A stretch of 64,000 bases of DNA from an uncultured SAR86 cluster bacterium (GCA_902595065.1 CACJOM010000002.1:60547-124546), one strand, 5' to 3'. Counted from the stretch's first letter, positions 22,914-25,530 are shown. Numbers and translations are program-made. The notes: generated by a model not told the origin, from the sequence alone.

Positions 22914-23645
22914 CTATAGGATACGCTTAGAAGCTAAATCTTCCAAGAGTTTTTTTTGTTTTTTTGTTAATTTTATATTTTGTAATAATTCTGGCCTTCT
23001 TTCAAAAGTTCTTATCAAAGCTTGATTTTCTCTCCATTCCTCTATTTTTTGATGATCTCCTGATAGCAATATCTCAGGAACTAGCTCTGTATTGAAATTT
23101 TCAGGCCTTGTAAATACTGGTCCTTTTAAAAGGCCTTGACTTAATGAGTCTTGCTCAACAGATCTTACATTACCAATAACTCCTGGAATAAATCTTGATA
23201 AAGAATCAATAAGAGCCAATGCGGCAAACTCCCCTCCGCTTAAAATAAAGTCACCAATTGAAATTTCTTCATGGATATATTGTGAAATAAATCTTTCATC
23301 AATTCCTTCATATCTTCCTGCAATAATAGTGATACATGTTAAAGAAGATAGTTCTTTAGCTTTTTTATGACTTAAAAGTTTGCCTTGCGGAGAGAGATTT
23401 ATTACTCTTCCCAAAAGATCGTCTGGAATATCTTTAAGTGACTTCTCTAGGGGTTCAGCCATAAGTACCATGCCCTCTCCACCACCATAAGGCTTATCAT
23501 CAACCTGGCCATGCTTATTCATGTGATAATCTCGTAAATTCAGGATATTAATTTGAATGTCCTCTCTATCTATGGCCTGGCCAAGCACACCATAATTTAA
23601 TGCTTCAAAAATTTCAGGAAACAAAGTAATGATATTAATCTTCAT
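22914..23645 (-). CDS. trmD: tRNA (guanine37-N1)-methyltransferase
   Basis: 243-aa [21 protein letters not shown] and [10 protein letters not shown] motifs are present. Confidence 0.95.
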
Positions 23646-23651
23646 AAAAAA

Positions 23652-24188
23652 TTAATAATCTTCCTGCCAATCAACTAATATTGAATTTTTTGATTTTTCA
23701 ACCGAAATAATGACTCTATTCTTAATAAAAGGAATCAAAATATTTTTTATTTGTTTTTTCATTGGTTTTACAACAAGAATGTCATTAGCTCCATAGTTAT
23801 TAACTTCGTCAACACGACCAAGGTGTTGGCCTTCAAGATTTATAACATCCATACCCACTAACTCAAACCAATAAGCTTCATTGGTTTCTAGTTCGGGTAG
23901 TTCTGATTTAAGAATATATATGTCCTTTTGACCAAATTCACTAATCTCATCAACATCATCAAAGGTTTTAAGCTTTGCAATAATATTTGCATTACTCTCT
24001 TTCATGTATTCAAAATGCACTTCTTCCATTGCTGACGATGATAAAGCGAAAAACTTTTTAAAGGAAAATAGTGTTGCTGGGGTTTGGGCAAATGATCTAA
24101 GAAAAAACTCCCCTTTGAGACCTCTGGTTTTGCCTATTTTGGCAATGAGGATAAATAGCGAAAGATCTGCTGTATTATTTTTTCTCAT
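23652..24188 (-). CDS. rimM: 16S rRNA processing protein RimM
   Basis: 178-aa ORF with N-terminal IGKTRGLKGEF, a PRC-barrel C-terminal half, and the expected position in the rpsP operon. Confidence 0.85.
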   Translation of the reverse strand: MRKNNTADLSLFILIAKIGKTRGLKGEFFLRSFAQTPATLFSFKKFFALSSSAMEEVHFEYMKESNANIIAKLKTFDDVDEISEFGQKDIYILKSELPELETNEAYWFELVGMDVINLEGQHLGRVDEVNNYGANDILVVKPMKKQIKNILIPFIKNRVIISVEKSKNSILVDWQEDY

Positions 24189-24189
24189 C

Positions 24190-24530
24190 GTCTGAAGATT
24201 CTTCTTCAGATTCTTCTACTGGAGCTTCTTCTGCTGGAACTTCTTCTGTGACTTCCTCAGCTGCTTCTTCTGCTGGAGCTTCTTCTTCAGCTTCTTCTTC
24301 AGCTGCTTCTTCAGGTGCTGCTTCTTCTGCTGGAACTTCTTCTTCAGCTGCTTCTTCAGGTGCTGCTTATTCTGCTGGAGCTTCTTCTTCAGGTGCTTCT
24401 TCTGCTGGAGCTTCTTCTTCAGCTGCTTCTTCAGGTGCTGCTTCTTCTGCTGGAGCTTCTTCTATGACTTCTTCTGCTGCTTCTTCTGCTGGAGCTTCTT
24501 CTGTAACTTCCTCTGCTGCTTCTTTAGCTT
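24190..24530 (-). repeat. In-frame GAA/GCA-rich tandem repeat (45-nt unit, about 3.7 copies plus degenerate flanks) encoding (E/A/P)n
   Basis: Near-identical 45-nt units lie at 24301-24345, 24346-24390 and 24421-24463 (plus strand agctgcttcttcaggtgctgcttcttctgctggaRcttcttcttc), with a 30-nt partial unit at 24391-24420. The repeat spans the rpsP stop codon. Confidence 0.85.
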
Positions 24531-24870
24531 GCGCTTCTAAGTCAGCTATCTTTTGTGCTTTTATTGCTTCTTTCTTTTGCGCTCTTTTATCTTTTTTTGC
24601 ATCAAGCTTGGCTTGAAGCTCATCTGGAGAAAGTCTTGCATCTTTAGCTAATTCTTTAACTTTATCTGAAAGCTGAGCTCCTTGAGAAATCCAATGATCT
24701 AGTCTTTCTACATTAAACCTCATTCTTTCTTCAGAGCCTTTTGCTGAAGGATTAAAAAAACCCAAGCGCTCAATAAATGCACCATCTCTTGGTTTTCTGG
24801 AATCAGCAACCGTTATAAAATAATACGGGTTTTTTTTGGCCCCACTTTTTGCAAGTCTAACTACTACCAT
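24367..24870 (-). CDS. rpsP: 30S ribosomal protein S16 with long Lys/Ala/Glu/Pro C-terminal extension (as annotated, ends at TAA inside a repeat)
   Basis: The first ~82 aa ([41 protein letters not shown]...) are canonical S16. An 85-aa low-complexity tail follows. Confidence 0.9.
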
Positions 24871-24916
24871 AATAAAAATTATCTATTAATAAAATGGTGT
24901 GTATTTTAGGTTAACC

Positions 24917-24944
24917 TTGACGAATTTGATAGTGTTAATATATA
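24917..24944 (+). promoter_or_regulatory. candidate sigma70 promoter for ypjD-like/yfjD
   Basis: TTGACG (24917-24922), a 16-nt spacer, then TATATA (24939-24944), 22 nt upstream of the GTG start at 24967. This rests on sequence match only. Confidence 0.3.
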
Positions 24945-24966
24945 AAGATTACAAAAAAATAAGATT

Positions 24967-25530
24967 GTGTCATTTCCATTAACTACATTTATAGCTTTAA
25001 TTAGCTATTTTATATCTCGAGCGTTTTTAAAGTCATCAAAGCAAGTTTACGTAGGGCTATTTTTAGCTTTGCTAATGATTGTTGGTATAATGGCTTACTC
25101 AAAAGGTATTTCTATATTAGGACTCCACATTTCTGCTACAAGTTTTAGCATTGTGATATTGATAGTTACTTTTTTTGAAACAACCATGCTAGAAAGGCAC
25201 ATAACAAAGATCAAAAAAGGAGAAATTGGGTCTAATGAAAAATCTGTAGAAAGAGAATATAACGAAATATTTGTTTTAATTGGATTTGGACTGCTAGGAA
25301 TAATTTTATCTCTTGTTTCTGGGCTTATGGTTCTTGGTGAACTTGATTTAGAATTAATTTTTAAAATTGTCTTTACTTTGTTTGCTTTGATTATTTATAT
25401 GCTTACATTTTTAGGGATAAAATATGCAAATTTAAAAGTTCGATACGCAGTTAGAGGGACTATTCTTTCTTTTGCTATGGTTCTTTTGGCATATTTTGGA
25501 AATTCAATTTTTTTAATAAACTTTATATAA
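24967..25530 (+). CDS. ypjD: YpjD-like (CcsA-related) inner-membrane protein, shortened
   Basis: 187-aa ORF with a GTG start, multi-pass. From memory, its C-terminus (IVFTLFALIIYML...VLLAYFGNSIFL) resembles E. coli YpjD (...LTLAYFGSRIV). It sits directly upstream of yfjD, as in E. coli and Pseudomonas. Confidence 0.5.
   Translation: MSFPLTTFIALISYFISRAFLKSSKQVYVGLFLALLMIVGIMAYSKGISILGLHISATSFSIVILIVTFFETTMLERHITKIKKGEIGSNEKSVEREYNEIFVLIGFGLLGIILSLVSGLMVLGELDLELIFKIVFTLFALIIYMLTFLGIKYANLKVRYAVRGTILSFAMVLLAYFGNSIFLINFI

Follow-up and report, generated by a model that had tools for sequence, protein, structure and literature searches.

In the window analysed here, a 64,000-nt stretch of DNA from an uncultured SAR86 cluster bacterium, rpsP is the first gene of an rpsP-rimM-trmD-rplS cluster, in an order that is the same on contigs L001 and L094-L101 (Table 1). 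The rpsP product scored 81.8 bits against Pfam Ribosomal_S16 (cut-off 27), placing the S16 domain at aa 9-68. Judged from this domain boundary, about 85-100 aa of the annotated 167-aa protein form a C-terminal tail, which opens with a non-repetitive linker kept in close relatives and runs on into an acidic repeat array. As written, S16 ends in ...EEAPAE. The terminus ESEEESSDDEKK is missing and comes in frame 51-62 codons later, and the 14-nt overlap with rimM that is typical of SAR86 is not reached by the open reading frame as written, whose stop lies 178 nt upstream of rimM.

Past this stop the rpsP frame stays open for exactly 63 codons, as the first-pass annotation had stated, to a second TAA 14 nt inside rimM, and the translation ends in EESEEESSDDEKK. 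No in-frame ATG, GTG or TTG with which these codons could start on their own was found in 24178-24366. An unbroken rpsP would comprise 231 codons and encode 231 aa. Tryptic digests would miss the tail of this read-through form, which lacks K and R from about K116 to K230. Overlapping junctions had also been reported for other genes of the operon; these are in fact gaps of 6 nt (rimM-trmD) and 20 nt (trmD-rplS). The 178-nt gap is large, as had been said, but it is not unique and ranks fourth among about 57 gaps in the window.

Table 1. Features of the rpsP-rimM region, in window coordinates
Feature	Position	Strand	Basis or remark
rpsP as written	24367-24870	minus	167 codons + TAA stop, ATG 24870-24868; ORF list, translation
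Canonical S16 domain, aa 9-68	24667-24846	minus	Pfam PF00886
K/A/Q-rich linker of S16, about aa 83-118	24517-24624	minus	Translation; unchanged among 20 database variants
Acidic E/A/P repeat array of S16 tail, TAA within	24211-24516	minus	TRF, codon layout
216-nt block absent from L001	24287-24502	minus	27-nt direct repeats (AGAAGAAGCTCCAGCAGAAGAAGCAGC) at bounds; edges ambiguous within repeat
45-nt copy 1	24412-24456	minus	GAA at 24444-24442
30-nt partial unit between copies 1 and 2	24382-24411	minus	
45-nt copy 2	24337-24381	minus	Bears the TAA
Premature in-frame TAA of rpsP	24367-24369	minus	T at 24369 (coding strand), G in both sister copies
45-nt copy 3	24292-24336	minus	GAA at 24324-24322; first codon GTT, not GCT
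63 open codons past TAA in rpsP frame, almost certainly distal S16 tail	24178-24366	minus	Homologous to tails of intact relatives
C-terminal motif ESEEESSDDEKK of SAR86 S16	24178-24213	minus	20/20 same-population variants; type in 43/43 species
Probable ancestral rpsP stop TAA	24175-24177	minus	Position relative to rimM ATG fixed in 43/43 relatives
14-nt overlap of probable ancestral rpsP end and rimM start (ATGAGAAAAAATAA)	24175-24188	minus	
rimM, 178 aa, ATG 24188-24186	23652-24188	minus	Pfam RimM + PRC_RimM
trmD, same operon	22914-23645	minus	PF01746
rplS, acidic N-terminal extension of about 87 aa	22291-22893	minus	Pfam L19 = aa 88-198 of 200

Upstream of rpsP, a 187-aa membrane-protein-like ORF (24967-25530) runs in the divergent direction, with no Pfam match on record in relatives. 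A simple scan of the 96-nt spacer between the two genes (24870-24967) revealed no sigma-70-like promoter. At the other end of the operon, the S/E/A-rich extension of bL19 is a second acidic extension that assemblies mishandle: in rplS of metagenome contig L002 (1467-1566) the acidic region lacks 167 nt, a length not divisible by three, and the L19 call there is no more than a 68-aa fragment.

The repeat array and the in-frame stop

The 45-nt unit of the array reads GCT CCA GCA GAA xAA GCA GCA CCT GAA GAA GCA GCT GAA GAA GAA, and one base each sets its three copies apart. The codon layout, in which the TAA lies inside a near-perfect copy, agreed with the first-pass annotation, minor matters of repeat phase aside, in setting this copy apart from its sisters at that codon by a single G-to-T on the coding strand, and in finding GAA in both sister copies (75 and 45 nt away from the TAA). 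The array had been called a 45-nt tandem, and the 45-nt copies are indeed present, but the tandem is not pure since a 30-nt partial unit intervenes. TRF gave periods of 15, 45 and 75 nt, the last with 95% matches.

The T at 24369 was found in no other repeat copy, and mis-joining or read mis-placement among copies therefore cannot have created it. Targets for a stop mutation are plentiful: 56 codons are GAA, and of 232 codons 103 lie a single step away from a stop. The tail has two further oddities. At 24465-24463 the codon is ATA (Ile), compared with ACA (Thr) in sister units, and the resulting EEVIEE is absent from the database variants. At 24336-24334 GTT replaces GCT in copy 3, which again, like TAA and ATA, is a T on the coding strand. 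These T-yielding changes at 24465-24463 and 24336-24334 could reflect AT-biased mutation or errors.

S16 tails in the population and across SAR86

With the read-through form as protein query, many metagenomic S16 proteins were recovered, 20 of which share the N-terminal 118 aa of the window's protein, one mismatch being allowed. Lengths in this set run from 147 to 180 aa, and every one of the 20 same-population variants ends in ESEEESSDDEKK. The exact RimM of the window is found on four other contigs, namely three metagenome contigs that end inside the S16 tail and L001 (CACJJY010000025.1), from the SAG assembly GCA_902593835.1, which, the repeat left aside, differs from the window by one SNP over about 4.8 kb. 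The S16 of L001 is intact at 159 aa and equals the window gene minus a 216-nt block that contains the TAA. In the pairwise alignment the two were 100% identical over the final 137 nt of the tail and over the start of rimM.

Conspecific contigs (about 98% identity) were gathered via the exact GroEL of the window. Intact S16 genes were found on the SAG contig L094 (176 aa), the k141-named short-read contig L095 (147 aa) and the JGI contigs L099 and L100 (263 and 229 aa, respectively). Three contigs with "pilon" in their names (L096-L098) have about 258-278 codons riddled with frameshifts, and the Tara scaffold L101 has an N-gap within the S16 tail. The intact alleles of 229 and 263 aa place the 231-aa form within the natural range. 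For this one species, recognized by identical GroEL and S16 N-terminus, S16 thus measures 147-180 aa in short-read-type assemblies versus 229 to about 278 codons in long contigs, and the contig names suggest that repeat collapse may often account for the short-read forms.

The TAA of the window is absent from about 70 alleles (the 20 variants, 43 species and the intact L094, L095, L099 and L100), and no clean in-frame nonsense codon was seen among about 70 other intact or long S16 alleles. The 167-aa product is not on record among 153 billion gene positions, where two other proteins of the window are also missing, perhaps owing to differing start calls; this collection seems not to contain the window's own genome. 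A 24-mer spanning the TAA had no match in JGI metagenome contigs, a search with almost no power since the GAA control matched only seven times; none of these seven was clearly a SAR86 rpsP, and one had weak repeat similarity. A 167-aa S16 ending in ...EEAPAE (P0045) was considered as a second truncated allele and rejected, as it traces to a contig end (L093) and to an assembly chimera (L092) in which unrelated sequence follows the stop. The broken tails of P0100, P0104, L016, L022, L023, L024, L063, L071 and L083 likewise proved to be frameshifts, N-gaps, inversions or chimeras and not nonsense changes.

The wider survey scanned one genome per species and yielded 80 loci (L005-L084), nearly all titled SAR86 cluster. 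Of these, 43 have an intact rpsP, 30 are on contigs that break off within the tail, and seven are scrambled by an N-run, chimeras, an inversion, frameshifts or a deleted tail. The intact representatives encode S16 of 144-299 aa (median about 200), each with an acidic E/A/P repeat tail that differs in length and unit; natural tails run past the S16 domain by some 60 to 215 aa, and their length is hence not tightly constrained. All 43 share a short non-repetitive terminus of the S-S-D-D-E-K-K type (more generally S-S-[DE]-[DN]-E-x-K), which is ESEEESSDDEKK in the relatives of the window and SEEKDSSDDESK, DDSSEDEKK or ESSDSEDEDEKS in more distant SAR86. On these comparisons, SAR86 bS16 consists of the canonical domain, a K/A-rich linker, a variable E/A/P tail and a fixed end, ESEEESSDDEKK. 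One contig from a Planctomycetaceae-labelled MAG (L022, PBCP01000015.1) carries a SAR86-type S16 that is 97% identical over aa 1-94 and has an abnormal tail end; this contig is probably mis-binned or chimeric.

The junction with rimM is equally regular. The rimM ATG is invariant in 43/43, and the rpsP stop ends 14 nt past the A of this ATG. Just upstream of it the Ser codons are TCT TCA in 37 of the 43, with no synonymous variation. The sequence TCT TCA GAy GAT GAr is kept across SAR86 at the position corresponding to 24175-24200 of the window. This conservation free of synonymous change suggests an RNA-level constraint in the rimM initiation region, instead of or besides one on the protein.

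Origin of the stop codon

The openness of 63 codons is by itself weak evidence of coding: 4.4% of mononucleotide shuffles of this A/G-rich stretch also stay open, and the repeat is largely open in another frame as well. Such behaviour is expected of GAA/GCA low-complexity repeats, and it would suit a stretch that is truly non-coding, as a spacer or a regulatory element, or one with another product, in which the open frame is a by-product of composition. A plus-strand ORF of 122 aa (24248-24616) and terminator-like hairpins could be cited in its favor. Nevertheless, the antisense ORF, rich in poly-S/A, is a mirror image of the repeat, and the hairpins occur on the antisense (plus) strand only and mirror the repeat in the same way. 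No Rfam family was found in the stretch, the one match (mir-2756) scoring 26 bits against a threshold of 61 on the wrong strand and being a chance product of the low-complexity repeat, and a promoter scan gave no match in the 178 nt. Above all, the stretch matches the translated tails of intact relatives codon for codon, including the non-repetitive motif and the position of the stop. That a frame should end by accident in the exact motif and rimM overlap of all intact relatives is far beyond chance, and the homology effectively refutes a non-coding origin or a different product, which we regard as scarcely credible. The shared terminus and stop position identify the 178 nt as rpsP coding sequence, almost certainly cut by a single private base difference. 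This bears out the first-pass view of the apparent spacer as S16 tail. In the junctions of relatives, none of which stops at the window's TAA, the opposing pattern of a shared stop followed by downstream indels was absent.

Programmed or tolerated read-through of the TAA, with both a 167-aa and a 231-aa S16 being made, had been offered as one explanation. Its only support from the sequence is that the downstream frame is uninterrupted, keeps register and closes with the conserved motif, and basal read-through of a stop codon is never zero. In this respect the locus resembles programmed read-through, where an in-frame stop precedes a long open homologous frame. It departs from such systems in that the stop is not conserved, no stimulatory element accompanies it and the strongest stop serves as a normal terminator. 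Relatives have GAA at this codon or lack the copy altogether, so there is nothing on which selection for read-through could have acted. Among the 57 long ORFs of the window TAA is the most frequent true stop (34), seven ordinary genes there end in TAA with a G behind it, and UAA is the least leaky stop codon of bacteria. With no Rfam family or special structure, and plain repeat downstream, read-through is very improbable. The TAA appears to be an ordinary lesion, either a recent mutation or a base error, without a recoding signal.

Between these two the evidence is divided. On our preferred reading the T at 24369 is real in the sequenced DNA and marks a nonsense allele that arose recently and only in this lineage, in which one G-to-T turned the GAA of one 45-nt copy into TAA; we consider the case for such an allele evenly poised. 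The rest of the window is clean, with 57 long ORFs intact and no indels relative to a 14.7-kb short-read contig. Lineage-private substitutions number 357 over 21.6 kb (259 synonymous, 63 non-synonymous and mostly conservative, 28 intergenic, no other nonsense), a profile that looks evolved. The large stop-prone target and the loose constraint on tail length were counted in favor of a real allele. G-to-T is a rare class among the private substitutions (8/350), which corresponds to about 0.2% of G sites on the private branch (8 over a self-estimated ~4,300 G sites, a rough figure), and the chance that an unconstrained tail acquires such a stop would be roughly 10%. Since the allele is absent from other S16 records, any real allele must be rare. 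The downstream remnant lacks any decay, and the single lesion and intact downstream frame indicate that the gene is not a decayed pseudogene.

The undecayed remnant fits a base error equally well. The alternative is a sequencing, amplification or consensus error, the true rpsP having 231 codons, ending in ESEEESSDDEKK and overlapping rimM. The stop is private to the window's assembly, and the 63 codons after it are perfectly preserved up to the terminal 137 nt shared with the near-clone L001. With a single SNP to L001 in 4.8 kb there was little time for divergence, provided that the short L001 allele is genuine. That the terminus and the rimM overlap are so strictly conserved points to selection against losing them. 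G-to-T, rare as a natural change here, is a classic oxidative-damage artefact, and the repeat is a proven trouble spot, as seen in the 30 of 80 contigs that break and the seven that are scrambled, in the N-gap of L101 and in the frameshifts of L096-L098. Against this, errors of other assemblies at this site are breaks, collapses, frameshifts and chimeras, never a clean single-base substitution; no sister copy could have supplied the T; and the remaining window has no broken gene or indel relative to relatives. Repeat-copy mis-joining, part of the error idea in the first-pass annotation, is thereby removed as a source of the T, while a base or consensus error stays likely enough to be a serious contender, somewhat short of probable.

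Consequences and relation to known systems

If the TAA is real, S16 would be made as a 167-aa protein with its ribosomal domain intact, about 50 aa of acidic tail and the conserved terminus gone. A tail of about 50 aa is within the natural range, so that the ribosome should function, and the truncated S16 would presumably be tolerated. Ribosomes would terminate 178 nt upstream of rimM and no longer cross its start codon, and the 63 codons downstream would be a fresh, undecayed remnant. The stop/start overlap, the mark of a translationally coupled pair, is kept in 43/43 relatives, and rimM translation is probably coupled to rpsP termination under normal conditions. No Shine-Dalgarno sequence of the GGAG/AGGA type was found upstream of the rimM ATG; translation of rimM may therefore depend on the passage of ribosomes that translate rpsP. 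Of the possible costs a drop in RimM is the most plausible one, and TrmD and bL19, each with a short spacer of its own, would be touched less directly. The 178 nt that would no longer be translated contain 29% G and 19% C and, judged by the loading-site preferences of Rho, this G-rich, C-poor composition makes Rho-dependent polarity unlikely.

C-terminal extensions of bS16 are known from other bacteria. In Cutibacterium acnes a 65-aa extension binds uS4 and its flexible or disordered C-terminus has no EM density, and bS16 of Mycobacterium smegmatis is also extended (PMC10085706). As in these species, a canonical domain is followed in SAR86 by a clade-specific C-terminal extension. Unlike theirs, the SAR86 tail is strongly acidic (E/A/P) and built of tandem DNA repeats, its end is a fixed motif linked with the start of rimM, and S16 length varies about 2-fold between species and from 147 to 263 aa within one. 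A literature search found no description of an acidic S16 tail in SAR86. The rpsP-rimM-trmD-rplS operon is standard in E. coli and other bacteria (PMC10931766). The gene order of the E. coli trmD operon is the same in SAR86. In E. coli a short spacer separates rpsP from rimM, whereas the SAR86 rpsP stop lies 14 nt inside rimM in 43/43 species, an overlap that the premature TAA of the window turns into an apparent 178-nt gap. Like young unitary lesions elsewhere, the change is a single disabling one, with no secondary decay and with intact orthologues in all relatives. It differs from such lesions in dispensable tails in that an essential ribosomal protein is affected, its core being untouched, and in that the junction with the next gene is lost.

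The annotation should record an rpsP of 231 codons interrupted by an internal stop, in place of a 167-aa gene with a spacer behind it. As a standard single-copy marker S16 is treacherous in SAR86, where 37 of 80 species-representative assemblies are broken or scrambled by its repeat tail, and the discrepancy between 147-180 aa in short-read assemblies and 229 to about 278 codons in long contigs makes database S16 lengths for SAR86 unreliable. The lesion itself is ordinary, and what is learned about the biology around it and about the mis-assembly of the tail is of greater use. The order-wide acidic repeat tail, with its fixed end overlapping rimM, represents an undescribed ribosomal-protein extension.

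Should the TAA be carried by living SAR86 cells, it would be a natural knock-out, and the distal polyacidic bS16 tail, the order-wide terminus and the rpsP-rimM overlap would all be dispensable. The SAR86 S16 tail would then be a fast-evolving, repeat-driven decoration of the ribosome surface, with 147 to about 278 S16 codons in one species; bL19, encoded nearby, has a similar acidic extension. The reading as a whole, in which the allele is real in living cells, tail, terminus and overlap can be lost and the tail is a surface decoration, is held only tentatively, at a shade below even. If the truncation is real, it would give the first hint on the dispensability of the SAR86 S16 extension.
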